A DNA stretch of 64,000 nt from Eledone cirrhosa. Its lineage: Eukaryota. The stretch covers positions 254,200,001-254,264,000 of the forward strand of contig OZ024740.1 of the NCBI GenBank assembly GCA_964016885.1, written 5' to 3'. Made by a program: the position numbers and the translations under genes. Under the pieces are notes generated by a model, which was given only the letters and a program-made list of their open reading frames with translations, was not told the DNA's origin and searched no databases. Of this stretch, positions 5,361 through 64,000 are shown in pieces (the first letter of the stretch is position 1; the number at the start of each line of letters is the position of its first letter).

Positions 5361-5734
5361 TACTTGTATATTTAACCTAATCTAATAAAATTATAGGGGT
5401 GGTCTCTGAATTATGAACAACACTGTATATCTCTTTCTCACTTCCATTCTCTTACTCTCTGAAAGAAATCTGCATATTCAGACCTGGAGAGGAGATTGGC
5501 TTCGCCGGGTTTTAAATTGTCCTAGAAACGTTGTATATCAAGATGGCGTATTTATGACTCTATCAGGAGTTATGGGAAAAAAGAAGGAAATGTCATAAAC
5601 ATATTCCTCCATTTATCCTTGTTTGCTGTCATTACATTCAGTTCTGTTCGTGAAACCATTTTAGTATCAGGTATCTCCCTTTACTTTTGGTGTCTTCTTG
5701 GTTTAAATTTCCAAGTATCATACCTCCCCAGACC

Positions 5735-10019: not shown

Positions 10020-10730
10020 TATAAGTTGTGATTCTTTTGATGGGTGTTTGATGAAAAGAATAATGCCATGATTGAGTTGTTAACAATGTTTATTTTATAA
10101 CAACAGTATTCACTTTGAACATCGAGTAATAATATTTATCACATGAATTATCACTACATGGATTAGCTGACTAGCTTCTACGAGCTAGCGTAAATGTATG
10201 TATTAATACAACGTTACAATATCACAGTGAGACGGAAGAATAGAATGAGCGTAGAATGTAAACAATATGAACTTACTATGTGTGTGTGTGTATGTGTCTA
10301 TTCTTAGTATACATATTTCGTCTCAAGGACTGCTGCTTCATGTCTGGCTGTCTGGCTGTCCTCTATGGCCGAGAAGGTGGGAGCCAGTAAGGGCCAGGAG
10401 AAAGAAAGAGTAAAAGGTCTGCTGATGCCTACATCGTTATCACTTGCTGACTGTTGCTTCGGATCTCTCTTGCCGTTAGATTCCTTAATTCCTTGTATTT
10501 ATAATAATGTTATAGTTAGCAGGGTGTGTATATGAGGTTGATTTATGATCAGCCATGTGGATATCGTCTCCCAGGAAGCTGGGATCACAGGTCAAGTGGT
10601 ATGTACGTCTGTCGTCGTTGTCTTGACAGGACAATGGTGGGAACCTTCCAATAATGGGTGGTCCCAGCGACGAGAAACCTCAGATTCGGTTTCGAATCTT
10701 CGCCGGTAAAATATAGGAGTATTCCGTTGA
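10020..10730 (-). mobile_element. LTR (family A), diverged copy
   Basis: Homologous to 660-1290 (gagctagcgtaaatg, ggtcaagtggtat, agattcg.tttcgaatct). Confidence 0.7.
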
Positions 10731-11929
10731 ATATATATATATATATATATATATATCGTTTCTAAATTTGTTTAGCAAGATTCTTTATCTGAAATCGTGT
10801 GTTGAAACCGATATTGTTATACTTTGGGAGGGTCATGTTGCCAATAAGAAACACACGCACCAGTTGCTTTCACTCCAATTTATTATAAATTTTAAAAAAC
10901 ATTTTTTTTATTTTTTCAAATTTTTTTTATAAATTTCCGGTTGGTTGGTTCCACAACCGGACGGTTGTTCATATATTGTCAAAGTTCTTTCGTCACACAT
11001 TCTGTGACCTCTTCAGTGACTGGGGATTCTTTTCTTTGTTTTGTGCCTCTCCTTTGTTCTGTCCTACGCCATCTTGTTTTTGTGTGTGTTGTGTGCTTAG
11101 TTTGCGCATGTGTTACATCCGGGTGTCTGTGTGTGTTTATATTCATTTATTTATTTGTTTATTTAAATGTTACTGGTTGGTTGTTTGTTCCATGTGTGTG
11201 TGTGTTTTCATTTTGTCCTTAATTGTAAGTTGTGATGTTGCTATTCAATTCATGTTTTCCAACCAGAAATTTATTAAAAAAATTTGAAAAAATAAATAAA
11301 AGTTTTTTAAAATTTATAATAAATTGGAGTGAAAGCAACTGGTGCGTGTGTTTCTTATTGGCAACATGACCCTCCCAAAGTATAACAATATCGGTTTCAA
11401 CACACGTTTTCAGATAAAGAATCTTGCTAAACAAATTTAGAAACGATATATATATATATATATATATTCAACGGAATACTCCTATATTTTACCGGCGAAG
11501 ATTCGAAACCGAATCTGAGGTTTCTCGTCGCTGGGACCACCCATTATTGGAAGGTTCCCACCATTGTCCTGTCAAGACAACGACGACAGACGTACATACC
11601 ACTTGACCTGTGACCCCAGCTTCCTGGGAGACGATATCCACATGGCTGATCATAAATCAACCTCATATGCACATCCTTCTAACTATAACATTATTATAAA
11701 TACAAGGAATTAAGGAATCTAACGGCAAGAGAGACCCGAAGCAACAGTCAGCAAGTGATAACGATGTAGGCATCAGCAGACCTTTTACTCTTTCTTTCTC
11801 CTGGCCCTTACTGGCTCCCACCTTCTCGGCCATAGAGGACAGCCAGACTGCCAGACATGAAGCAGCAGTCCTTGAGACGAAATATGTATACTAAGAATAG
11901 ACACACACGCACACACACATAGTAAGTTC
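10269..11929. repeat. Large inverted duplication (~675-bp arms, ~315-bp spacer)
   Basis: 10269-10944 is the reverse complement of 11259-11929 with few mismatches. Confidence 0.92.
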
Positions 11930-12747
11930 TCTGATGATCTTTGTTTTTCCATTAATATCCATGTGATATCTAATGTTTTGCAAAGTGAAACTGTGCAGTA
12001 AGGGCCACTTGAATAGGTAAATATTTATATTATATTTTTTAATTTTGATTAATTTTAATTGTAAATTAATTTTGATTTACTTTGAAAAATTGGTTGAATT
12101 TTACTTGTTCTGCTTATCTTGATATTAAGTTCTGGTATATAAAATTATTACCATAGAACCACCTTGAATCATCGACAACCTATGTATTTCTAGGGGTACA
12201 TTGTACCCTCAGATATATTAACTTTATTCATTATTCTCCGTTATGTAGAGAAAAAATCTGTCGTTCTATCTAGCTGCTAATTTTTTTTTTTTTGGTGGCG
12301 AATATAGACAACAAGTCTACGATTTCTCGCCTTCACTTTACACCAGCGTATTTATGGGTCCCTTTCAGACCTGTATTAGTAGGAGTGAGGTCATATATTT
12401 TATCGTTCCTGAGGTTTTTAACCCTAGGAAAGGAAAATGCTTCTCTGATGATCTTTGTTTTTCCATTAATATCCATGTGATATCTAATGTTTTGCAAAGT
12501 GAAACTGTACAGTAAGGGCCACTTGAATAGGTAAATATTTATATTATATTTTTTAATTTTGATTAATTTTAATTGTAAATTAATTTTGATTTATTTTGAA
12601 AAATTGGTTGAATTTTACTTGTTCTGCTTATCTTGATATTAAGTTCTGGTATATAAAATTATTACCATAGAACCACCTTGAATCATAGACAACCTATGTA
12701 TTTCTAGGGGTACATTGTACCCTCAGATATATTAACTTTATTCATTT
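11927..12747. repeat. Partial tandem duplication (514-bp period) ending in (TA)n; PLE pseudo-LTR-like layout
   Basis: 11927-12232 is repeated at 12441-12747. Confidence 0.85.
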
Positions 12748-12774: not shown

Positions 12775-13730
12775 GGTGGAACACTGGAAGGTAATATCCG
12801 TAGTGGTAGAGCACTCAGTCCAAGGGACGAGTTAGGTAGAAGTGGTTACACAACAGTTAGTTCACCATACCGAGAACAATTGTTTCACCTTCGCGGATCT
12901 TCAGCTCGGGATGTGTAAGGTTATAGGGTCAGGAAGGACAACCGTACGAACGCGCATACGCAGAAACTCGGTCACTTCACACAGGCAATACTAGACTGCG
13001 TGCGGGGGGTGTAAGGGAGAAAACTGCCAAAGTGCGGAAAGTTTTTAGGTTGAAATAAAATTTAAAAAATTAAAAATAAAATTACAAAGAATCAGTCCGG
13101 AGCCTTGTAGTTATTCAATCGATGTTTGGTGACGTGTGGACAACGTGTGAAAAATTCACTTCTCGTGTTTAGGCACTCACTATTGCGTAATCTCTTTAGG
13201 ATAGTTATTCGTTCGTCGATACATAAGCCACACGTCGGATTTCCCCTTGCGTATGGCTTGGACTTAGTGATGGCTTTCCATTGAATGGAATAGCCTCTAC
13301 TTGAGTCCTTGAGGCACCATACGTAGCTCACGAGTTTCGTGGATGAACGTCTGTCCGGGTATCTGAAGGTAGACTGATGGTTCAGGAAACGCTCCTTGAA
13401 TCGGCCCTCCGACATGCCCACATAGGATTTGACCTCCTGTGGTTCGTTTGGTCGGTTGGAAGTGACCACAGCTTCAGAGATTACAGCTGGTGTGTTGCAT
13501 TGCTGTTGAAGGGGACAAGCTTCAGGCTTACGGCAAGAGCACCCTGGTGGGGTGTTGCTCCTAGGGCTGCTGGTGATGTGGGCCTTCATGTTCTTAGCTC
13601 AGGAGTATCGTAGTTTAACTTTGTGTCGGTTAAAGATGGAGCGGTATTTATGACATATGGGGAAGTGTCTATCTAAGAGGGCTAGAAACTTTTTTCCTAC
13701 ATTGGTTTTAACGTTGAGTGAGAAGGGGGG
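12775..13730 (-). mobile_element. Penelope-like element, 5'-truncated (thumb, CxC linker, GIY-YIG)
   Basis: [17 protein letters not shown]...IFNRHKVKL; CSCRKPEACPL; SYVGMSEGRFKERFLNH; CGLC..E; CPH. Confidence 0.9.
12870..12909 (-). ncRNA. Minimal type-I hammerhead ribozyme motif
   Basis: ccgag-CTGAAGA-tccgcgaaggt-GAAA-CAATTG-TT-ctcgg; stem I ccgag/ctcgg; palindromic stem III. Confidence 0.75.
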
Positions 13731-13732
13731 AG

Positions 13733-15120
13733 AGAACTGTAATTGTAGGAATCGGGTTGACTGCCCCCTATTCGGGAAATGCCTCTCCAATAACATTGTC
13801 TACAAATGTAAGATCGAAACACCCACGTCCCGTAGGGCCTAGATAGGGTTAACCGCCAATAGATTCAAGCAGTGTCTTTACATGCACACCCATTCTCTTC
13901 TTAACCCTTTAAGAAGGAATATGACGTCACTTTCAGCTTAAATCTGGAGTCTAAAAGACAACCACACCCAATATAGGTTACACTGGGAGATCCTTGCTAA
14001 GGCTAGATCGTATAATGGAAATAAAAGACCATGTGATCTTTGCGCCGCTGAAGCCTTGGAAATACTATACGCCAATGACCACATCTTAAACAAAAAATCT
14101 GAGGCAATTTCGGCTTGTAAACATAAATTGCATAACAATTTCCTGTATTACAACCCAACATTATACCCTAACAGATAGTACGAACAATACGCGGATAATT
14201 TACGTCTTGATGTGGTAGCTAAGTATATTTTATGTTTATACCATTACTTATTTGCATAGGTAAGTATACCTTACCAGTATGTTTTGTGAAGGTACGTATA
14301 CTTTCTCGTACGTATTTTTGCTTGTATTTGTTATAGGTGTATATATTATATATATACTGGTATGTGTATATTTGGTTATGTGTATATGTGTATTTTGTGT
14401 TTGTGAGTGTATGCGTGTTTGCACGTATGTAAGGTGTGTATATGTGTACTTTGTGTTTTGGTTGACGTAGTTTAGTGAACATATGTGTATTTACCTGTAG
14501 GTATGTGTGTGCGTGCGTTATATACGTATTTATGTGTGTATATTTATATACGTTTATAATTATATGTATACACACACACATATATATTTTTTATATGTAT
14601 TTGGTGTATACGTTCGTATGTGTGCGGGTACAGGTGTCATGCGGGTTTATGTATGTGTGCGCGTGTTTATGTGTACGTGCTTGTATATGCATACCATGGC
14701 GTTTTCGCGTATGCATGTGTATGTACGTTGGATGCGTGTATATATTTAATTATTGTTGATATCAATAGCCTCTGTCATTTTCGTTTTACTAATTTATTTA
14801 CATTATTCTTAACTCTGAAGCCGAGAATCATTCGGTTTCCTAAATAGAATATTAGTCTACGACTTCATTTATACCATAAACGTGGTTTTGTCTTTGCGTG
14901 TAATTGTTCTCATCGATCCACATAATGACGTATTATCTTCGCTTTTTTCCGTTCATTGCCAAGGAACGTCTTCACGAACCAAAGTATTGTCTTCCTGTTT
15001 TCCTTCGGTTGCAACGTTTCTCGAAATATTTACTTCTGCGTTCAGAGATTGATTTTTTTTTAGTTTCAGGAGATCCCGTTAAGGGTGAAAGCAGCGATTC
15101 TTTGCTTAAACTTTAACCTG
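13733..15120 (+). mobile_element. Second Penelope-like element (GIY-YIG remnant to ~14170 plus 3' tail)
   Basis: [25 protein letters not shown]...IGLTANRFK...CDLCAAE...ACKHK; extent of the tail uncertain. Confidence 0.8.
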
Positions 15121-33412: not shown

Positions 33413-33483
33413 TGACGTACATGGGAGTCGAACCCACATCTTTGGTTATCCGGACCACTGTTTACCATTTACACCAACACATC
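33413..33483 (-). pseudogene. tRNA-like sequence (pseudo-tRNA or SINE head)
   Basis: GATGTGT..GTACGTCA acceptor stem, TGGTGTAAATGG A-box, GTGGG-TTCGACT-CCCAT T-arm, T7 run 8 nt downstream; non-canonical anticodon loop CCGGATA. Confidence 0.6.
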
Positions 33484-33535: not shown

Positions 33536-33890
<355 letters not shown>

Positions 33891-34842: not shown

Positions 34843-38065
<3,223 letters not shown>

Positions 38066-45120: not shown

Positions 45121-48100
45121 TGTAGCGGCCCCTTGCGGCTGTAACTCGGCACGTATAGGAGTTGCGACCCTTTGTGACGGTCGTGACTCCCAGTGGCAGA
45201 TACGTATAGGAGTTGTGTCCCAGTGGCAGATCCATGTATTAAATGGAGTTGCGTCCCCCTGGGGACTATATATTTGAGGACATCAAGGCATTACTCTCTC
45301 ACTTCCTTCACCGGCAGCCGAAAGAAACACTTGAACCTTACCAAGAGAAGACTTCTGTTCTTCTCTACACACTCCAGTCTGGGAGTTGTGACCAACTGAA
45401 CATCAACATGTGGTAAAAATTATTTCTATTAATTTATTTGACTTCTGTGAAGTAAAACCATGTCACAACACTCACCTGCATTTATTGTCATTCTTAATAA
45501 TATATATACACTGATACTAACATTCTAAATTGGTGACCTGACGTTTAAAAAAAAAAAAAAAGAATGGGAAACGGTACCATGTGTATATAACAAAAAAAAG
45601 AGAAAGAAAAAAACATTTAATACAGAACAACACGCTTCATTCTGATCTGGCTCTATTTTACTGATTTCAGCATCTTTATCTGTAACGTTTAACAATCAAA
45701 CTCCTCATATGTGCAAAGCGAACATTCCATTTATTTACACACAAACACAAAACAACAATTGTATGAATGTTTTTTCTTCTTTTCTTCTCTTCTTTTCTCT
45801 GGCTAAAATTTTTGAGGATGACAAGGTGGCGGCTTTCTTCTCCATCAATAGTGTTTTTGGCGCGAAATCGTCCGCCATATGAGTTTTAGTTTTAAATTCC
45901 CTGCCTATACATTGTTAATGACATTGCTCGGTTAGTCGCTCCTTTACATGTTGTCTCGGGTGCATTCTTTTTCCTGTCCAGTTGTTTGGCAGAGAAAAAC
46001 AAGCGATTTTGTTTTCCTTTTCCCTTGTGTTGGAGATATTTTTCCAAACGGAGATGATTTTTTGCAGATTACCTATAGTATAACAATGACATCTCACTCA
46101 GCCATTATGGCGTTGCAGAAGTCCATTCAGGAACTCACCCTGGAGCTCCAGAAGATGAAGGTCTGGTGTGGTGCCTGTTCGCGCCTGCGCAGCCGCGGGA
46201 GATCTCAATCTTTTAGACGTCACTCCAGGTCACCAGCTTCATCTTTGTGCTGGTACCACGAGCGATTTGCTGAGAACGCGAATCACTGCGTGCAACCTTG
46301 CTCGTTTCATAAGGCGGGAAACGCCAAAGAGGTCCGCTGATGGGGGCAGTTGACCTCAACATAAAGCCACCAAACCGCCATTTCTTCATTAAGGACCTTA
46401 TGTCGGGAACAGGTTTCCTCGTGGATACAGGAGCCTCCTGTAGTATTTGGCCGGTCGATTGCCTGAAAAATACCCCCGTGGAGTCATCCGTTACTCTGCA
46501 GGCCGTTAATCACTCGTCTATAAAGACATACGGACAAATTTCGCTTCCTCTCAAATTCCTAAATCTTCGTAGGGATTTTAAGTGGATTTTTACGGTTGCC
46601 GATTTGCCATACCCTATCTTAGGAGCGGATTTCCTCCACAACCGGTTTTTCAATTCGTAGCCGGAAAGCCAATGTTCCAACGGTCAGCCCCATATTCTTC
46701 ATCGCTGCCGCTGGAGACGCCTACCATTCGTTGTTAGGTTCCCGGAGCTCACCAATGGAAATTTTTGAGTCACTGAACCAACACACTCAACTGAACATTT
46801 CATTTCCACCACCGGTGCTCCAGTGTTTTCGCGTCCACGCCGCTTACTGGCAGACAAATTAAAGGCAACATGGTCCGAGTTCGACCATATGCTGCAGCTG
46901 GGCATTATTCGCCCATCTACGAGTCCTTGGGCTTCACCGTTACACATGGTGCCCAAGACTTCCGGCGACTGGAGACCCACTGGGGATTACAGGAGGTTAA
47001 ATGCTACGACCGTCTCGGATAGGTATCCCATTCCCCATCTCCAGGATTTCGCATCTTCATTGCAGGGGTGTAAGATTTTCTCAAAACTAGATTTAGTGCG
47101 AGCTTACCACCAAATTCCGGTCAGGAAGGAGGATATTCCGAAAACGGCATTTACAACTCCTTTCGGACTCAGGAACGCCGCTAGCACTTTTCAGCGGTTC
47201 ATAGACGAGGTCACTCGTGGTCTGGACTTCGTTTATGCTTACATAGACGATATTCTCGTCGCTAGTTCCTCTCCGGAAGAGCATATGCGCCACATGCTTC
47301 TCTTATTTCGGCGACTTCAGGATTACCGTGTTCGTGTGAATCCAGCAAAGTGTGTTTTCGGTTCCACTTCCCTAAATATTTTAGGCCACCTCATCGACGC
47401 CGAAGGTATTAGGCCGCTCCCTCAGCGAGTTCAAGCCATACAGGAGTTACCTCCGCCTACTACACTTCACCAGTTGCGTCACTTCTTAGGCCTAATCAAT
47501 TTCTATAGGCGTTTCGTTCCTCATTGTGCTAATTTGCTATCTTCCCTTACTGACATTTTTAAAAATCGTCGTAAGAAGAATGAGGATATTTCCTTGACAT
47601 AAGGACAGCTTAAAGACTTCCAGACTGCCAAGACAGCACTTGCTAGTTCATCTTTGCTAGCCCACCCGGTACCAGAGGCCAAGCTTTCGCTTTGTGTTCA
47701 TGCATCTGATACCGCTGTGGGAGCAGTTTTACAGCAGTACAACGCTGGAAACCAACAACCTTTGACATTTTTCTCAAGGAAGCTGAAACCAGCAGAAACG
47801 CGTTACAGCACGTTTGGGCGGGAATTATTAGCCATATATCTGTCGGTGAAACATTTCTCTCATATTCTTGAGGGGATAAATTTTACAGTTTTACCGACCA
47901 CAAACCTCTGACCTTCGCTTTGAGGGCTTATAACCGACAGATATTCGCCCAGAGAGACAAGGCATCTGCATTACGTTTCGCAATTTACAAGTGATATCCA
48001 GCATATTGCTGGCTCGCTTAGCATAGCTGCAGACGCATTGTCACGTTTGCCAATCAGCTCCATCTCGTCATCCCAGGAGATCGACTTAAGTCGTTTAGCT

Positions 48101-49688
48101 GCAGACTAACCTGCACTCCAATCGTTGGATACTCTGTCTGCCGAGTTTGCAACTTGCATCTTCAAATATCTGCCCTTGTCCACCACCGACAGGCAGATTC
48201 TATGTGATGTATCTACGGATTCACCACGACCATTTGTTCCTGAGACTCACCGTCGAATTGTGTTCCTTGCTTTGCACAGCATTTCTCACCCAGGAATTTC
48301 TGCCACAGTAAAGCTTATAACGGCTAGATTTTTCTGGCCCAATATGAGGCGAGAAATTACTGTCTGGTGCCGTTTCTGCACACAGTGTCAGAGATCTAAA
48401 GTCCACAGACACATCCGGACTCCACTTGGTACTTTCAGTACTCCAGATGCTCGGTTTCAACACATCCACATTGATATCGTTGGACCTTGGCCATTCAGTA
48501 GTGGATATTCGTACCTCTTAACCTGTATCGATCGTTTTTCGCGATGGCCTGAAGCCATCCCCTTAAAAGATATTACTGCTGAGACTGTAGCGCGTGCCCT
48601 GGTATCGGGGTGGATTACCCGCTTTGGGGTACCAACTACAGTCACCCCAGACCGTGGTAGACAATTTGAGTTTTATCTTTTCTCTGAGCTCACAAAGATC
48701 ATTGGTGCTCAACGGATTCGGACCACAGCTTATCATCCTGCTTCAAACGGAATGGTGGAACGCTCTTCGCGCCTATCCAGACTCTCAACGTTGGAGCGAG
48801 TACCTTCTTATTGTGTTGTTAGGAATTCGGTCATCAATAAAGGAGGACCTTGGGTTCTCCCCGGCCGAATTACTGTATGGTGCTCCTCTAGCGTTGCCTG
48901 GGCAAATGCTTGCCCCTGTTGATCTTGCTTTCCGGGGGCCTGTTTCCTACGTATCTCGTTTGCGCTCCTATTTTCAGGACTTACAGTCCATGAATACTAG
49001 GAAACAAACTATTAAATCTGCAGTCCCGAGGGATATTGCCTCTTGGACACGTGTATTCGTCAGAAACGATGCGGTTACTGCACCCCTCACACAGCCGTAC
49101 TCTGGACCCTACCGTGTGTTAGCACGTACTGACAAACATTTCACAGTAGACATTAAGGGGTCCAGAGAGACAATTTCGGTGGATAGACTAAAAAGGGCAT
49201 ACAATGACGCTCATACACCCGAGCCACAAATACCCCAATCTTTCTCTCTTGTGCATACACCTGCTCCTTCTGCCCCACCTTCAGTACCCTACCTGGAGGA
49301 GGGTACTGTAGCGGCCCCTTACGGCTGTAACTCAGCACGTATAGGAGTTGCGTCCCTTTGTGACGGTCGCGACTCCCAGTGGCAGATCCATGTACTAAAT
49401 GGAGTTGCGTTCTCCTTGGGAACTATATATTTGAGGACATCAAGGTATTACTCTCTCACTTCCTGCACCGGCAGCCGAAAGAAACACTTGAACCTTACCA
49501 AGAGAAGATTTCTGTTCTTCTCTACACACTCCAGTCTGGGAGTTGTGACCAACTGAACATCAACATGTGGTAAAAATTATTTCTATTAATTTATTTGACT
49601 TCTGTGAAGTAAAACCATGTCACAACACTCACCTGCATTTATTGTCATTCTTAATAATATATATACACACTGATACTAAAATTCTAAA
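45121..49688 (+). mobile_element. Ty3/Gypsy LTR retrotransposon, CsRN1-like (gag largely deleted, pol degenerate)
   Basis: LTRs 45121-45529 and 49307-49688; TSD AGTT; tRNA-Trp PBS at 45531; CHCC gag knuckle CWYH..C..PC; protease DTG; RT YIDD; RNase H; integrase HPG..C..C, HIDIVGP, GPY; PPT ggaggaggg. Confidence 0.95.
46316..46357 (+). promoter_or_regulatory. Programmed -1 ribosomal frameshift signal (gag/pol)
   Basis: G GGA AAC in gag phase, 6-nt spacer, hairpin gaggtc...gacctc; protease ORF 46340 lies in the -1 frame. Confidence 0.75.
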
Positions 49689-54810: not shown

Positions 54811-54960
54811 TTACTTTTTATCAACAAACCGCTTGATTCCATTGAGGAAGGACAAATATCTCTTGTGTTCATATACTGTACAGAAATCCATCAATTGGTT
54901 AATGAAATCATCATTAATTCCACGTTCGTCAAGCATATCCATTAAGAGGTCATACAGATT
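54811..54960 (-). CDS. C1QBP: Last coding exon of C1QBP/p32 (mitochondrial acidic matrix protein, MAM33 family)
   Basis: tttttaatttctAG acceptor, then NLYDLLMDMLDERGINDDFINQLMDFCTVYEHKRYLSFLNGIKRFVDKK* (50 codons), similar to human ALYDHLMDFLADRGVDNTF...EHQEYITFLEDLKSFV; AATAAA at 54721-54726 and 54578-54583 (minus). Confidence 0.9.
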   Translation of the reverse strand, partial: NLYDLLMDMLDERGINDDFINQLMDFCTVYEHKRYLSFLNGIKRFVDKK

Positions 54961-55751
54961 CTAGAAATTAAAAAGTAGAATCCAATAAACATCTTGTAAT
55001 AAAGGTGTCAACATTGTAAAATCATTCAATTTATTCATGTGATTGGAGTGATGTTAAGGACCGAAAGACTTGCCTGAGGGGGGTTCTTATCTTATGACCT
55101 TCTACTGTCCAACTCTCCTGAGAGTTTCTTACAACTGATGTTTGGAGAAGAATTATCTGGAGTGACATTCTTGAGTCGTTTAGGATTGTCTGTATTGAAG
55201 TGAAGGTGAGTGTAAATTAGATTCACAATTGTAAGGTTGTGAGTTTGATTCCTAGGTTGGGCAATGTCCTTAAGCAAGACACTATTTCTTGAGCAAGACA
55301 CGTTTCTCTTTCTGCCAGGAGTTGAGAGCGGTAGATAGTATTATCAATTGGAAAGACCAATAGAAACATTGTTTCCTGGTCCAACCTGACGAGTTCCATC
55401 ACACTCAGTAAGCAAATGAGATCTGGGATCTTGTTGAATCATACTTAAGTATCTTATAATGATGGTGGTACAGTTAAGATGTGTGCAATAAAACTGGTGG
55501 GAGTATGTGATAATCCACAGCTCACCATTCCCAACCCAGGCACTGCCCATTTGCTACAAGGCCAGCCTCATGACCCAGCAATTTCTCTTCCATGGTGGGA
55601 TGCTCCTACCCCTTAACAAATAACAGGGGAGTGAAACAATTATACAAGGTGGGGAGGGGGACAATTGGCCATTGTCCTCCAGATGTTTGCTTTGTCCTGC
55701 GGAAATGGCAAGGCGGATCTCTCTCTCTCTCCCCCTTTCTATATATATATA

Positions 55752-56556
55752 TAAAATCAAGGGAAAGCAACTAGAGAAAAAATTTTAAAATAAATTTCAA
55801 AAAATTCACTGTACTTACTATGTGTGCCTTTACCGCGGTTTCAGATCCCAAACAAATAGACAATCCAAGCAGATTTCCATTGAGAAAGAGATCATCGTCA
55901 GAAGTACAGTGAATTTTTTGAAATTTATTTTTAAATGTTTTCTCTATTTGCTTTCCCTTGATTTTATATGTTCTGGCTTGTCAATTTATTAACTTGCCAT
56001 TGAACGACACTGGCATACAGTTGGACAATACTTGTATCCCTATGTGTATTATTTACATGTAGGAACATACTTTTATTATTATTCTCCCCAACAGTAGAGA
56101 AACGTTTGGTCGTTTGAACGGCTGCTATTTTTAGTAGCACGGGATTGACCTGTCCACCTCGCTTTCTGTCTTTGCACATGGTACTAGGCAAAATTGTTTC
56201 ATCATTCATTCACTCTCATTCTGGAACAGTTTTGTATGGCACCAGTCTGTAATTTGAACTCGGGAATTATATATTCTCAGAGTGAGAAAAGCCTTCTGAC
56301 GATGATTGTTCTCAATGGAAATATGCTTGGATTGTCTATTTGTTTGGGATCTGAAACCGCGGTAAAGGCACACATAGAAAGTATAGTGAATTTTTTGAAA
56401 TTTACTTTAAAATTTTTTCTCTATTTGCTTTCCCTTGATTTTATATGTTCTGGCTTGTCAATTTATTAACTTGCCATTGAACGACACTGGCATACGGTCG
56501 GACAATACTTGTATCCCTATGTGTATTATTTACATGTAGGAACACATACTTTTTTA
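55752..56556 (+). mobile_element. Retrozyme-like non-autonomous PLE (inverted 5' piece plus 477-bp-period direct repeat) in (TA)n, inside the C1QBP intron
   Basis: 55752-55904 is the rc of 56293-56445; 55902-56075 is repeated at 56379-56555; no ORF. Confidence 0.85.
56291..56369 (+). ncRNA. Type-I hammerhead ribozyme, intact core, extended stem II
   Basis: gcctt-CTGACGA-(50 nt)-GAAA-CCGCGG-TA-aaggc; predicted cleavage after 56364. Confidence 0.85.
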
Positions 56557-56730
56557 TATATATATATATATATATATCCAGGGGGTGTAACTTGGAGTTA
56601 CTGCAGGTTCACCCGGGAGAGCACTCGATGTTTAGTTCACTTCTGTGTTGAGGTGTAGAGCTATACAACAGAGTGTAATATATTGAAAGGATAACAAGGA
56701 TTGATTACTCCTTCATTGCATTTATTGATA

Positions 56731-56813
56731 GGTGACGCGCGTTTCGCCACTGATCAGCTCAAGGTTCGATCTGTATCGATCCTAGCCGACTCAATAATCG
56801 GCGGCTCGACGCC
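56731..56813 (-). ncRNA. Degenerate hammerhead of another PLE tail
   Basis: gccgccgat...atcagtggc stem II, then GAAACGCGCGTC; CUGANGA box decayed. Confidence 0.5.
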
Positions 56814-58544
56814 CCCTTTTAAAATGCTATAAGAAAATGAAATACATGCTACGTGGTAAAGTCAGAGTTTCAAGAGTTTGACAAAATGAGTCGTTTTGAT
56901 TGGTGGGAAGGATCAAGGGGATGTACTGGCCTGTAGTGTATGTGGGGGTGGATGTGATGGTGAGATGTTCGTGACGGTCGGTGGATGTGATGGGCTGTGG
57001 TGTGGTGGTGGCGGGTTGGCCTTGGCCTGTAGTGTATGTTGGGGTGGATGTGATAAGATGGTGGTTATGGTCGCTTACTGGGATGGGCTGTGGTTGTGGT
57101 GTTGTTGTTTATGGTAGTGGCGTTTATGGTGGTGTCGAGTCCTTGCGGAGATACATAACTAGACGCTCTTCGTCTGACAAATACGTTGTATATATGTATA
57201 CACACACATATATGTATACATGCGCATATATATTGATGTATATACACACAGGAACACACCCACACACCAACACCCTCGCCCACACTTATCCACACACACA
57301 GCCATATGCATATATACACACATAAGGAGAGTGGGGGAGTATCGGTGGGGGTGGCGTAGGACAAAGATGGAGGGAAGGTGAGAGGCAATGGAGGTGTTAT
57401 ACATATATACATACACATACATACACTCATACGGATATACGCACACACACGTATACATAAACATACACACACATATATATACACACACACACACACACAC
57501 ATACACGCACACATATAGATTCACTTATATACATATATATAAATATATACACACATATATATACATACACGCACGCATATTTATACGCCCGTATATATAA
57601 AAAATACTTACACACAGACACACACACTTGCATTGGTTCGGGAGGGGAGGTATGTGTTGGCAGTGTTGATGAAGTATGGAGTTGTCTTGTGGTGGTGGAG
57701 TTGTGAGCGACAAAAATATACAGGATCGAATAGTGCTATGGGTTACAGGTTAAAAGGTGACATAGGGAACGCGGGGGAAAAGAGTTTATGGACGTATGGC
57801 GATGTGTGTTGTGGTCATGGTAGTGGTGCTGGGGTGATATGTTTGACAAAATGATTACATGATCAGAAGTTACGGTGGGTTACAGGGTGAAGCAGACGGG
57901 GGGGGGGGGGAATATAACACAGTCGATCTGGGAGTGAGGGATGATATGTGTTGATGATGTTAATGATTGTTGAAGTATGTGGATGTATCTAGTGGTGGCG
58001 GTGGTGGTGTGTGTGTGCCACAGTACATTTACAGGGTCAAATTTAGCGTTGGGTTGTAGGTTAGGGTAGACAGAGGGAACATCGGGGGATAAGGTTGCGG
58101 GTGTGTATGGTAGACATATGACGATGTGTGGTGTGGTGGTGGTGGCGATGGTGTGATATGATCGACATTGCATTTACAAGATCCCATGTTACTATGGATT
58201 GTAAGGTAGGAGACCGATCAAACACAATGTTGCAAGGATGAGGGGTGTATGGCGATGTGATTTTTGGTGGGGGTGATGTATGCGGCATGATATACAAAAT
58301 ACAGGCTTAGAAATGGTTACATGCAGTACAATAAAATAAATTCGCTGAGATGGGCGATGGTGAGACGGGGCAGAGGTGGTTATTATTATGCTGGGTCATG
58401 GTTAGTGTGATTTTTGGTGGGGGGTGATGTATGCGGCATGATATACAAAATACGGGCTTACAAATGGTTACATGCAATACAATAAAATAAAATAAAATAA
58501 ATAAATTCACTGAGAAGGGCGATGGTGAGATATATATATAGATA

Positions 58545-61500
58545 TCATCATCGTTTAACGTAATCTTCCACGCTAGCATGGGTTAGGCGATTTTGTTCCA
58601 TTTTGATGCAGGAGTGGTCGGGAGACCATGTCTCGCTCATACGGAAATGTCTCTGGCAGGATTTTTACAGCTGGATGCCTTTCCTAACACATTTAGTGTG
58701 GACTGGGAGCTTTTTGCCGCGTCTCCTACACGACCACCTTACAGTGTGGACTGTTATGTCATCAACACAGTGGACGGAACGGGAAAGGGAGGATGGGTTA
58801 GTGGTGGGGTGTACATTTGGGTTAAGAGGTGCCTACTGACTGTAGGTTTGTATGCAATGGCAGTCGGGTCTTCTGTACAACTGCATGGCGCCAAAGATCT
58901 CAACCCATTTTCTTAGAGAGGTGTAAGCAAGGTCAGTTTTTATCACCTTGTCTCAGGTTTTTCTTGGTCTACCCACTCCGTAACTTCCATCAATTTTCAT
59001 TGCCCTGCACTTTTTTATACGCATCAGATGGCCATACCAATGCAATCTCCTCTCCAGAACACAACATTTGATACCTCTTATTCTTAGTCTCTCTCTCAAT
59101 TCATTTAAGCTTCACCATTCATTCATATTACTATTACACATCCATCGGAGCATGCAAGCTTCATTTCTTTCTAATCTACGCAAGTCTTCAACACACAACG
59201 CCCACATCTCACTACAATGTAATATCGCCGTTTGTATACAAGCATCATACAATCTGCCTTTCACTTTTAGAGAAAAACCTCTTGTGGCCAACAGCGGTAT
59301 TAACTCTCTGAACTTTTTCCATCCTGCTCTAACTCGGCTACTACACTTTCAGAGCACCCTCCTCCACTGCTGATTTTGTCACCCAGGTAACGGAAAGTGT
59401 TCACTATTTCTATTGATCCACCTGGGCAGTTGAAGGAGACAGCATCCAGTGGGTCCTTGCTACTTACTGCACCTGAGCATCGGCCACATATAAAATCTAC
59501 ATTCTTAGATAGCTTACCTGTGATCCCACTACATCTTTTATGTACCCATAGTTTGCATTTGGGACATAGAATGGAATTTCTACCTACCCCTTTCTTACAC
59601 ACTAAGCATGGCCATTTCCCAGAGGGCACCTGTGCCCTATTCTCCTTTCTACATACTAGAACTTTAGTCTTAGACAAGTTGACTCTAAAGACTTTTGATA
59701 CTAGGTCATACTTCCATGTTTGGAACTTCTCTAGTTCAGCCATGGATTCAGCTATGAGAGTTAGATCATCTGCATATAGGAGTTCCCATGGGCAGTCAGT
59801 CTTAAACCCTTCTATTATAGCCTGTAGGACAATAATAAACAGGAGGGCTCTAAGGATAGAGCCTTGGTGAACCCCTACTATTATGCTAAATTCATCACTA
59901 TATTCATTGTTAATTCTAACCTTGCTGACTGTTCCTCTATACATGGCTTGTACTTCTCTCAAGCCACTCATCTACTCCTAGTTTTTGAAGAGTCCACCAG
60001 ATAATGGAACGGAGGACTTTTTCAGAGACTTTCTCCAAGTCAACAAAAGCTAAGTAGAGGGGTTTACTTTTAGCTAGGCACTTCTTCTGCAGTTGCCTCA
60101 CCAAGAAGAGAGCATCTGTGGTACTTTTACTTGGCACAAATCCAAACTGCATTTCATCAAGCTTAACTCAGTAATCAGCTGTACAATAACTCTTTCTAAG
60201 ACCTTCATCATCTGGTCAACCAACTTCATCTCTCTACAGTTTTCTATCTAGAGCATCTCTTTTGCCCTTGTAGCAGTTGACGATGATGCTGTTATGCCAG
60301 TCATTGGTATGACACCATTTTTTATTACTTGGTTTACAATATGGGTGGCCATGGCATGACCCACCATTCCAGATGCTTTCAACATCTCTGCAACTATCCC
60401 TGAAGGTCCAGCTGCCTTGCCTATCTTCATATATTTGATTGCCTTACTTACTATACTTCTGTTAACTTGCACAACTGGTCCTTGTTGGGTCAACTTGAAT
60501 TTTTTCTCTAATTCTGCCATAAATTCAGCTATTAGGGTTAGATCATTTGCATACAGAAATTCCCATAGGCAGATAGTCTTAAAACTCTTCTGTTATAGCC
60601 TTTAGGGCAATAATAAACAAGAGAGGACGAAGGACAGAGCTCTGATGGCTACCTACCTGCATGTTAAAATCTTCACTATAGTTATTGTTAATTCTAACCT
60701 TGCTAACTGTTACTCTATACATGGCTTGTACTCCTCTCAAGCAATTCTTCCACTCCTAGTTTTCTAAAAACCCACCAGATTAAGGTGCATGGAACTTTGT
60801 CAAAGGCCTTCTCCAGGTCAACAAAAGTTAAATAGAGGGGTTTACTGTTAGCTAGGTACTTCTCCTGTAGTTGCCGTACAAGGAAAATAGCATCCATCGT
60901 ACTTTTACCTGCATTTCATCTAGATCAATTTGGTCCCTAATCAGTTGAGTAATAACTCTTTCTGTGACTTTCATGACTTGGTCAACTAATTTAATGTTCC
61001 TATAGTTTGCTCTATCCAGGGCATCTCCTTTGCCCTTGTAACAGTTGATGATGCTGCTGCTATGCCAGTCATTTAGTATGACCCCGTTCTGTATTACTTG
61101 GTTTACTATACGAGTGACCATAGTATGTCCTACCATTCCAGATACCTTGAACATTTCAGGAACTACCCCCAAAGGCCCAGCTGCCTTGCCTGTCTTCATA
61201 TCTCTGATTGCCTTACTTACTATACTAACATTAACTTGCACAGCTGGTCCTTCTGTTGGATCAATGTGGGACAGGCTATCTTTATTCCATTCATTCTTCT
61301 TATTCAGTAGTCTCTCATAGTGACACTTCCAAGCTACCTTCTTATCACTGTCAGTGAGGGCAATATCACAATTCTCCTTGACATATTGCCTCGCAATCCT
61401 GAACACCTTACGTTGTAGAATATGCTTGAACTTATTATCCTCTGCTTCCCTCTTTGCAAAGTATAGTTGTTGTCTAGCCTCTCTCCTAGCTACCTGATCG

Positions 61501-62355
61501 AGTTCTCTATTGCCCCCCATCCTGCCATTCTTTCCAAGCCTGCTTTTTGGCCTTGGTGGACTTCACCTTACTGTTCCACCACCAAGTCACTCTCCTCCTG
61601 CCTAACGGTCTGCTTCAGCCACAGATTTCATCTGTCACCTTCAGCAGGTTAACTTTCAGGAATTCTCACTGTTCCTCTATATTGTACATCTCTAATTGCT
61701 CTTCCCTACTGTCAAAAGCATCAAGTAACATGCCTTTAAAATTTTTACTGGCTGTGGGGTCCTTCAACTTCCATATTCTTCTCCTCAAAGTAGTCCTCCT
61801 CTGTAGTCGAGTACGTCTAGTCCTGATTATGCGGTCACTAGCTATTAGGCTTTGTTGGGAAGTGCATTCTTCACGGGGGAGGGACTTAGTGTTTACAACA
61901 GACACTTTGTCACGTCTTCTGATAAAGATATAATCCATCTGACTGGCGTGCTCCCCTGATCTATAGGCGATCAAGCGATTATCTAGTTTTTTGAAGATTG
62001 TGTTACAGATAGTTAGGTTACTGGCATCACAGAATTCCAGGATCCTGAAGCCTTCCTCATTTCTAGTACCAAACCCATAACCTCCATGGATCCCATCATA
62101 GCCATCACAACGTTGTCCAACATGACCATTAAGGTCGCCAGCAGTAATTATGTAGTCACTGTCAGTTATTTGGGAGGTAGTGAGCATTAGCGACTCATAG
62201 AATCTGTCTTTTATAAAGTCTGGTAGACCAGATTGGGGTGCATAAGCGGATATTATTGTCACAGTTGTTCTATTTAGAACTAATCTTATTTTAATTATCT
62301 TGTCATTCACTCTATTTACGGCAATTACTTTATCTACCAATTTTTCAGCTAACAT
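58545..62355 (-). mobile_element. RTE-like LINE pseudogene with internally duplicated RT segment
   Basis: APE at 61666-62355; RT block KAAGP..G / QFGF / DLEKA present twice (59730-60480, 60490-61250); (GAT)n tail at 58545. Confidence 0.9.
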
Positions 62356-63074
62356 AATTCAGGGAGGGGTGTGGGAGACGGAATTATGTTGGTCTTGGGT
62401 TTCCATATCTGATATAAAGAGGAGCGTTTGCATACTCGTCCTGAAACGGGAGGTGAATTTATCTCTGTCGTTGTCATTGTGAGTGTTCATGTTCCCCAGC
62501 TCTGTAATCCGTTTATCATAGCGAACAATACCTAGGTCTAAGCTTAAGAAGTATCAGCCTCGCGAGAGAGATTAGCACTAGAAGCCTTACTATAAAACCG
62601 CTGAGTTTTGATAGGCCCATAACTATGGTGGTGAGTGGGGTGGGTGTGAGGGAAAAGGTGACTTCCGGAAGACATATGTGCTTAGCCAACCTGGGAGATA
62701 CTGGAAAAACAAACAAAAGGCAACGAACTGTAACGGAACTTCTAACTAAAAGTGGCATAGTGGCATAGCTAACTTTTAACAGATTTACTAACGATAAACT
62801 TAAATTAAAGGCGACTTCTGGAAGACATACGTATTTAGCCAACCTGGGAGATACTGAAAAAACAAACAAAAGGCATCAATAGCTTCTTTTCTAACAGGGG
62901 TACTCAATTCTAAATGGATTTACAGGCAGGAAAAATATTTTAAATTACTACATTACAGAATCGGCCAACAGCTAAAATCCATCGATTGTATAACTGAAGT
63001 AATTTTACAACAGCGTACAGAACAGGGAAATATATATATTTAGAGTCATTCACATTGCATCTTTCTATTTTGTT

Positions 63075-64000
63075 GTTACTACTGTCTAGCTGAGAAATCA
63101 ATAGATGAGGTGAATGAGGTAGTTAGAATAAGTGACAGAATCATCAAGTTTAGACTTACTCTAATAGACTGGTGATAATCACATCTACCTATGCTCCGCA
63201 GGCAGGACTGGGTAAAGAACAAAAGGACAGGTTCTATGAGGAAAGTTTACAGACAACGCCTGGCAGGCGACTTTAATGGATATGTGGGACAGTACCAGGA
63301 TGGATTCAACAGAGTTTCATGGCAGCTATGGTTATGGCTAAAGGAATGAAGAGGGCCTGACACTTCTGGAATTCGGTGATACAAATGAACTAACCATCTG
63401 CAACACAATTTCAGGAAACCAGCCATGGCGAAGGATTCACTACCCAACACAAGTTAGTTAATAGTGACATCAAAATAAAAGACAGAACAAGACACATAGG
63501 AAAATATGGAGATGGAGAGTGAGGAAGCTTATGAACCTCTCGGTTGAATATAGGTTTAGAAAGGCCCTATATAGGTTTAGAAAGGACCAGCTATTGAAAT
63601 TGATAGTTTTAGGGTCTAGGACGCAATCAAAATGAATGGTCAAGCTGCGAGACCAGAAATAGTTGCTGAGATGCTAAAAGCATCAGGAAAGGTAGGAGTC
63701 AAACTAGTAACCTGTATAGTAAATCAAGTAATACACGACAGAGTTCTACCCAATGACTGGCGCAGCAGTATAATCATAAATTGCTACAAGGGTAAAGGTG
63801 ATGCTCAGAGGAATAAAAGTTACAAAAGTGACAGAGTTATAGCGCAGCTAATTAGGGAAAGAGTCAAAATAGATGAGATACCCTTTTCCTACAAGAGAAG
63901 TTCCTAGCCAAAAATAAACCACTATATTAGCTTTTGTTGATCTAGAGAAGGCCTTTGACAGAGTACCTCGATCACTTATCTGGTCTTTAAGGAAATTAGG
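63075..64000 (+). mobile_element. Heavily deleted RTE-like LINE running off the window
   Basis: YAPQAG, AGDFNG, AEMLKASG, CYKGKGDA, FVDLEKAFDRVP. Confidence 0.85.

Follow-up and report, generated by a model that had tools for sequence, protein, structure and literature searches.

The last intron of C1QBP in the octopus Eledone cirrhosa carries a short repeat with a hammerhead ribozyme core on each strand, one of them sense to the gene, which raises the question of how such a two-strand layout arises and whether the C1QBP pre-mRNA is cut there. Here, we analysed this repeat in a stretch of 64,000 nucleotides (hereafter the window, from whose first letter all positions are counted, positions beyond its end being given as window-equivalent). 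We regard it as very probable that this insert represents a single copy of a multi-copy, non-coding hammerhead repeat, likely inserted by the enzymes of a Penelope-like element (PLE), and that its gene-sense hammerhead, as predicted, is silent in the C1QBP pre-mRNA.

A preliminary description of the locus had placed the insert inside the transcribed region of C1QBP, and the exon matches, the GT..AG intron ends and a spliced contig all bear this out for the last intron. The last coding exon of C1QBP/MAM33, including the stop codon, lies at 54811-54960 on the minus strand, as delimited by Pfam, protein and structure matches and by the splice joint; its stretch 54814-54960 (-) matches Pfam MAM33 and three solved C1QBP chains, together with cephalopod and other mollusc proteins, the best of which is an octopus protein (98%). 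Further upstream exons map to window-equivalent 66716-66808, 72041-72163, ~75.0 kb, ~126.5 kb, and ~130 kb. From this exon mapping, the last intron (minus strand, 11,755 nt) occupies 54961-64000 in the window and continues to window-equivalent 66715, with GT..AG ends over 54961-66715. The contig in question, from run X4 (a sequencing run without an RNA record), joins the last C1QBP exon straight to the previous one at a depth of ~150. With its start ~790 nt upstream of the splice acceptor, the element is thus intronic, and it is the hammerhead of its inverted copy that is sense to C1QBP. In the same run, four contigs that are short and have a depth of 3-5 map within the element or next to it, three of which show 0 differences from the window and one of which shows 1 (contigs drop rare variants); none of these four bridges 55831.

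The insert sits between two remnants of a (TA)n target read directly from the sequence (55740-55753 on the left and 56555-56577 on the right), TA-rich flanks being common in the family, and a target-site duplication is unreadable within such a tract. Three copies of a repeat unit follow one another between these remnants: an inverted arm on the minus strand (55749-55904, monomer positions 214-367), which forms a 5' inverted pLTR-like copy sense to C1QBP; a 5'-truncated direct copy on the plus strand (55902-56079, monomer positions 300-477); and a full, non-coding monomer of 477 bp, also on the plus strand (56080-56556). This amounts to 1.37 direct units, in a layout that combines a partial tandem with an adjacent inverted copy and a 5' truncation within (TA)n. 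At the junction, the inverted arm and the truncated direct copy have a 3-nt microhomology in common, and the insert's own repeats diverge by ~5%. The ~65-bp hairpin reported earlier is real, with measured arms of 68 nt (55749-55816 and 55902-55969) that are 96% complementary, and this hairpin of 65-68 bp exists because the truncated direct copy overlaps the inverted arm. What had been overlooked is a longer inverted repeat, the longest of the insert, whose 156 bp at 94% identity (55749-55904 and 56293-56446) span both ribozymes; on the pre-mRNA, its second, plus-strand arm (56293-56446) lies upstream of the sense hammerhead and is complementary to it. The remaining tail of ~110 nt (56447-56556, +) extends between the two 3' ends preferred by the family and begins with a conserved short hairpin.

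The hammerhead cores claimed for both strands can be located base by base. The sense one, of the type I minimal kind, lies at 55826-55904 (-), with C3 at 55901, GAAA at 55842 and a predicted cut after 55831; the one antisense to C1QBP lies at 56291-56369 (+), with C3 at 56296, GAAA at 56353 and a predicted cut after 56364. In both, the CUGANGA, GAAA, and UH boxes follow the type I order, stem III is an 8-nt palindrome, and U.U stands at 10.1/11.1 instead of G10.1-C11.1. A custom descriptor of type I hammerheads whose stem III is palindromic recovered 4 hammerheads in the window versus 0 in each of 20 two-letter-block shuffles of it, and Rfam models at gathering score returned no hammerhead family in the window, the only match there being a tRNA-like one elsewhere. 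The core of the sense copy is intact and its stem II has 6 bp above the U.U mismatch at 10.1/11.1; its stem I is indeed cut to only 3 bp, as had been described. The plus-strand copy had been called complete, which holds for its core and its 5-bp stem I but not for its stem II, which private changes have reduced to 4 bp, versus 6 bp in the sense copy. Nine columns differ between the ribozyme-bearing arms, 8 being private to the antisense copy (four of them in one cluster) and 1 to the sense copy. This lower decay of the sense copy (P 0.04 when counted by columns, 0.12-0.22 when counted by events) weighs weakly against silence, and the two arms may stem from different units of one multimeric template.

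From a genome-wide perspective, the insert is anything but singular. A search with the monomer gave 2601 candidates, 40 of which were scored, and the other copies proved 84-93% identical to it; an 18-nt core pattern had 252 exact matches in the genome and a tail-hairpin pattern had 1602, with 0 for the reversed control of each. The family size is hundreds to thousands of copies, and the name retrozyme given to the insert in the preliminary description finds support in this short non-coding hammerhead unit dispersed in many copies. We assembled 60 loci, comprising the 30 best-scoring ones and the first 30 by position for the core pattern, from which 11 duplicates were dropped to leave 49 insertions. 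Arms are present on both strands in 31 of these 49 insertions (head to head in 30), the whole ribozyme span is on both strands in 16, and the exact core is on both in 3, all of these fractions overstating the share of ribozyme-bearing copies since the loci were picked by likeness to monomer or core. It is because both-strand arms (31/49) and both-strand ribozyme spans (16/49) recur in this way that we attribute the two-strand layout to the insertion mechanism.

Among the 79 outer 3' ends of the 49 insertions, 40 fall at monomer positions 468-477, 28 at 361-370, 7 at 311-325, and 4 elsewhere, so that two preferred ends, at positions ~367 and ~474-477, hold 68 of the 79; their spacing is 100-112 nt in most measured copies, across three related families, and a TA-rich flank follows 53 of the 79 ends. 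The 72 5' breakpoints are widely scattered along the monomer, and one copy (L029) breaks at position 214, as the C1QBP insert does. They do not cluster significantly at stem I (4 vs. 1.9 expected, P 0.13, n = 72), so that a targeting of the inversion junction to stem I finds no support; nor do ribozyme-cut RNA ends as the source of the 5' ends, the breakpoints at the cut site being near expectation (2 vs. 1.5 expected, n = 72).

Head-to-tail arrays with at least two ribozyme-bearing units are present in the family and absent from the C1QBP copy. One locus has two cores on one strand (L011), and another (L155, G000:C1:149205000-149210900), of a subfamily ~73% identical to the family monomer, has ten head-to-tail units of 485 bp on one strand plus an inverted dimer. 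All units of this array share the same stems and cores, with a G10.1-C11.1 pair and, as stem III, a palindrome of 10 nt, and the array is likely young and cleavage-competent. Across 29 distinct stem/core variants, drawn from 54 matches, stem II positions 2-6 are paired in 26-28 variants versus shuffle means of 16-24 (the variants are related and these figures are not probabilities), positions 2 and 5 of stem I covary within the same 29 related variants, and stem III is a perfect palindrome in 20 of the 29. Because stems I and II covary and stem III stays palindromic among variants, the hammerhead fold is maintained at the level of the element family. Positions 10.1/11.1 are U.U in 14 of the 29 variants, G.U in 8 and G-C in 4. 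As a side observation, U.U at these positions recurs in two related families. Related families differ by a compensatory C-G/U-A change in the hairpin at the start of the tail; nhmmer found no match of the monomer to the two sister units, whose kinship to it rests on shared motifs.

We propose that a PLE RT/GIY-YIG protein acting in trans would nick both strands of a TA tract, that reverse transcription would start at two preferred sites on a multimeric or circular RNA, and that a short microhomology, here of 3 nt, would serve to join the two resulting cDNAs head to head. Whenever the second cDNA ran past the ribozyme, a ribozyme would end up on both strands, and the overlap of the adjacent arms would create the hairpin; the presence of ribozymes on two strands, the clipping of stem I, and the hairpin would all be by-products of insertion. 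The ribozyme would serve the element itself: in head-to-tail arrays, the palindrome of its stem III would let it fold as a dimer. On the C1QBP pre-mRNA, the lone sense copy, with its 3-bp stem I, would pair with the 156-nt complement made earlier, and the intron would be spliced uncut, the duplex being likely an incidental ADAR substrate.

The mobilising enzyme is a matter of deduction, since no autonomous PLE sharing the pLTR was found. GIY-YIG PLE ORFs are numerous in the genome: a GIY-YIG search gave 10,597 candidates, 150 of them scored, and 30 GIY-YIG loci and 20 long-ORF regions, followed later by 32 further loci, were compared with the monomer; neither the 50 GIY-YIG loci nor the 32 further ones include an autonomous PLE with the same pLTR. 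Hammerheads with palindromic stem III do occur in several of the 20 long-ORF GIY-YIG regions; in L118, an inverted pair bears such hammerheads on both strands. The sole similarity seen (L104, E 1.7e-6) was set aside as that of a sister non-coding element adjoining a PLE, not a shared pLTR. Separately, the 3' end of the RT/GIY-YIG PLE at L104 (~5590-5640) shows a hammerhead-like motif with a U3-A8-type core, recognized by eye at this locus only, with the same 4-bp stem I as the C1QBP element and a 6-nt palindrome; the PLE family of L104 also comprises L103, L108, L111, L112, and L114.

Whether the sense hammerhead could act in the pre-mRNA was approached by equilibrium nearest-neighbour folding, without kinetics, tertiary contacts or proteins, the folding cost being the energy needed to impose stems I and II while the core is kept open. 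Taken alone, the sense ribozyme shape is predicted to cost 6 kcal/mol, a figure that rises to 12 when the 65-bp hairpin is included and to 108 over the whole element; the plus copy is predicted to cost 9 kcal/mol alone and 110 in the element. The hairpin had been said to compete for the ribozyme strand: its 68-nt arms do sequester the 5' strand of the sense stem I in the predicted fold, but the dominant structure is the 156-bp repeat. On the C1QBP pre-mRNA, the upstream 156-nt complement is transcribed before the sense ribozyme, and minimum-energy folds of the growing transcript predict that 11 of the first 12 ribozyme bases, and 69 of all 74, are paired with this upstream copy. Stem III would have a 2-nt loop as a monomer and would form as a dimer a duplex predicted at -14 kcal/mol. 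No second family copy was found within the gene over window-equivalent 54,000-131,000, which leaves the sense copy without a cis dimer partner of its own family there. The palindrome of the neighbouring element (56745), also considered as a partner, differs from stem III and is not complementary to it.

By prediction, the sense copy fails as an active monomer, given its 3-bp stem I, the 2-nt loop of its stem III and the penalty of 108 kcal/mol, and it is likely silent because, as predicted, double-stranded RNA keeps it locked. The sense hammerhead would most likely be silent and tolerated, within what is probably an ADAR substrate. Repeat-directed RNA editing has been reported in coleoid introns and 3' UTRs (PMC9068888). 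Two readings had been left side by side initially: that of a tolerated, disarmed ribozyme now gains support from the 3-bp stem I, the dimer-type stem III deprived of a partner, and the burial by the 156-nt complement, whereas that of a conformation- or editing-dependent switch does not, the layout being family-wide, the motif of a dimer type without partner, and its capture predicted.

In a more specific form of that switch, the sense hammerhead would be a latent C1QBP cut site, activated in trans once free retrozyme RNA provided the other half of stem III, PLE protein acted as its chaperone, or ADAR editing loosened the duplex. We consider this very unlikely, even if the sense copy retains its core and the full stem II of the family with fewer private changes than the antisense copy, even if its stem III duplex as a dimer is predicted at -14 kcal/mol, and even if published work describes a PLE hammerhead that is protein-assisted in vitro (PMC11167929), widespread repeat-directed intronic editing in coleoids (PMC9068888) and, with CPEB3, a precedent for an intronic ribozyme that affects its host gene (PMC10919898). 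Indeed, ~108 kcal/mol are predicted to separate the duplex from the ribozyme fold, a gap that would presumably not be closed by a few I.U pairs among 156 bp; stem I has 3 bp, the layout is explicable without selection (16/49 insertions), and the excess of conservation is not significant by events. Similarly slim are the chances of a sensor, in which activity of the family would supply trans retrozyme RNA or PLE protein that, helped by ADAR editing, would complete the ribozyme and have the pre-mRNA of C1QBP, an essential mitochondrial-protein gene, cut. If true, such a switch would be a first link between retrozyme activity and host pre-mRNA cutting.

The ribozymes could also be irrelevant, and the 156-bp duplex, lying 0.8 kb away from the acceptor, could affect the splicing, editing, or nuclear retention of C1QBP, effects of which inverted repeats are capable. 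A long duplex at 94% is indeed predicted on both strands, and coleoid ADAR edits intronic repeats (PMC9068888); however, this duplex is self-contained and excludes the acceptor and the pyrimidine tract, many similar inverted pairs populate the window, and a normally spliced contig exists (run X4), all of which makes such an effect improbable in our view. As for the plus strand, its full 5-bp stem I and full monomer might suggest that the insert is a source copy, antisense to C1QBP, whose cut at 56364 frees retrozyme RNA. We find this scarcely credible: the plus strand has one ribozyme only, when two are the stated requirement (bioRxiv 10.64898/2026.07.22.740005), its stem II is damaged, and the same duplex is predicted to bury it (~110 kcal/mol).

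The reading that we prefer, namely a PLE-inserted and silent hammerhead repeat, can be set against what has been described elsewhere. Metazoan retrozymes have been defined, and their derivation from PLEs argued (PMC7229834; bioRxiv 10.64898/2026.07.22.740005). The C1QBP element is like the metazoan non-LTR retrozymes described in PMC7229834 in being an intronic copy of a unit that is short, AT-rich and non-coding and has a single type I hammerhead, and its family, like theirs, includes monomers, partial tandems, and multimers; 42-44% of Xenopus retrozyme copies are given as intronic (bioRxiv 10.64898/2026.07.22.740005). Nevertheless, the octopus unit measures 477-485 bp versus the 150-450 bp first described for metazoan retrozymes, and it departs from the latter, as they are described, by a minimal PLE-type ribozyme, a long loop II, a frequent U.U at 10.1/11.1, and frequent 5' inversions. 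The C1QBP copy is moreover without two ribozymes in tandem, unlike active retrozymes, for which two are stated to be required (bioRxiv 10.64898/2026.07.22.740005).

Minimal PLE hammerheads were defined in PMC4209133, which gives opposite-strand pairs 100-700 bp apart, reports no detectable cleavage for a single minimal motif and low cleavage for dimers, and terms G10.1-C11.1 highly conserved, not obligatory; the dimer dependence of such hammerheads has been reviewed (PMC6765202). PLEs are described with a pair of direct pLTRs and a third that is inverted (PMC3846280) and with an inverted 5'-truncated copy, a tail, and (TA)n targets (PMC8557442), and in an anole PLE two RT start sites bound the tail, both strands are nicked at AT-rich DNA, and the ribozyme cuts only with protein in vitro (PMC11167929). 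The C1QBP element is like the pLTRs of endonuclease-containing PLEs, so described, in its palindromic stem III, 5-bp stem I, and two direct plus one inverted repeat, and like PLEs in its 5' truncation, its two alternative 3' ends, its AT-rich/(TA)n target, and its opposite-strand ribozymes a few hundred bp apart. It is unlike them in having no RT/GIY-YIG ORF, and its tail is ~110 nt long here versus the 30-40 nt in print for PLEs (PMC3846280, PMC8557442). Only in this ~110-nt tail, a minor novelty, does the element depart from PLE anatomy as published.

The amniote ultraconserved hammerheads and the CPEB3 HDV-like ribozyme are single-copy and conserved across species. The sense copy in C1QBP is unlike these intronic ribozymes in belonging to a repeat of hundreds to thousands of copies, with ~5% decay between its own repeats, a dimer-type stem III, and a predicted burial. 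What it shares with the intronic ribozymes proposed as host regulators, as reviewed in PMC6765202, is to be a self-cleaving motif, intronic and sense to its host gene.

Taken alone, the C1QBP insertion matters little, as one among hundreds to thousands with a layout already in print, and it calls above all for caution: two-strand hammerheads, a clipped stem I, and a flanking hairpin can all arise from PLE-type insertion without selection. The value of the family for transposon biology is modest. Its two sharp 3' ends ~110 nt apart provide a genome-scale test of the two-start-site model of the anole PLE, and the conserved hairpin that follows the inner 3' end in three related families may mark the signal recognized in trans by a PLE protein. 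We found no octopus retrozyme family in the literature, as covered by titles and abstract openings, and the family may already be catalogued in repeat libraries.

Other elements of the window deserve mention in their own right. A related-family hammerhead partial tandem with a 514-bp period occupies 11927-12746 (+), with cores at 11931 and 12445; it is accompanied by inverted arms (10269-10944 and 11259-11929), and its first ribozyme is clipped 4 nt before the core. A compact hammerhead at 33797 (-), whose stems I and II measure 6 bp and 5 bp and whose stem III is palindromic, lies between TA runs, and the tRNA-like Rfam match (33413-33483, -, 32 bits) is inside a TA-flanked inverted repeat. 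Adjoining the C1QBP insert, a high-copy repeat of ~2 kb (56578-58540, -), sense to C1QBP and again between TA runs, has near its end a GAAA box, a palindrome, and AAUAAA, with no CUGANGA box within reach; this could be a further PLE derivative whose ribozyme is non-canonical or decayed. Two translated fragments, at 13611-13763 (-) and 35618-35737 (+), resemble what we take to be PLE (Naiad-like) protein motifs. Finally, the translations of 46213-49556 (+) contain broken frames that can be recognized by eye as those of a Ty3/Gypsy-like protease, RT, RNase H, and integrase.
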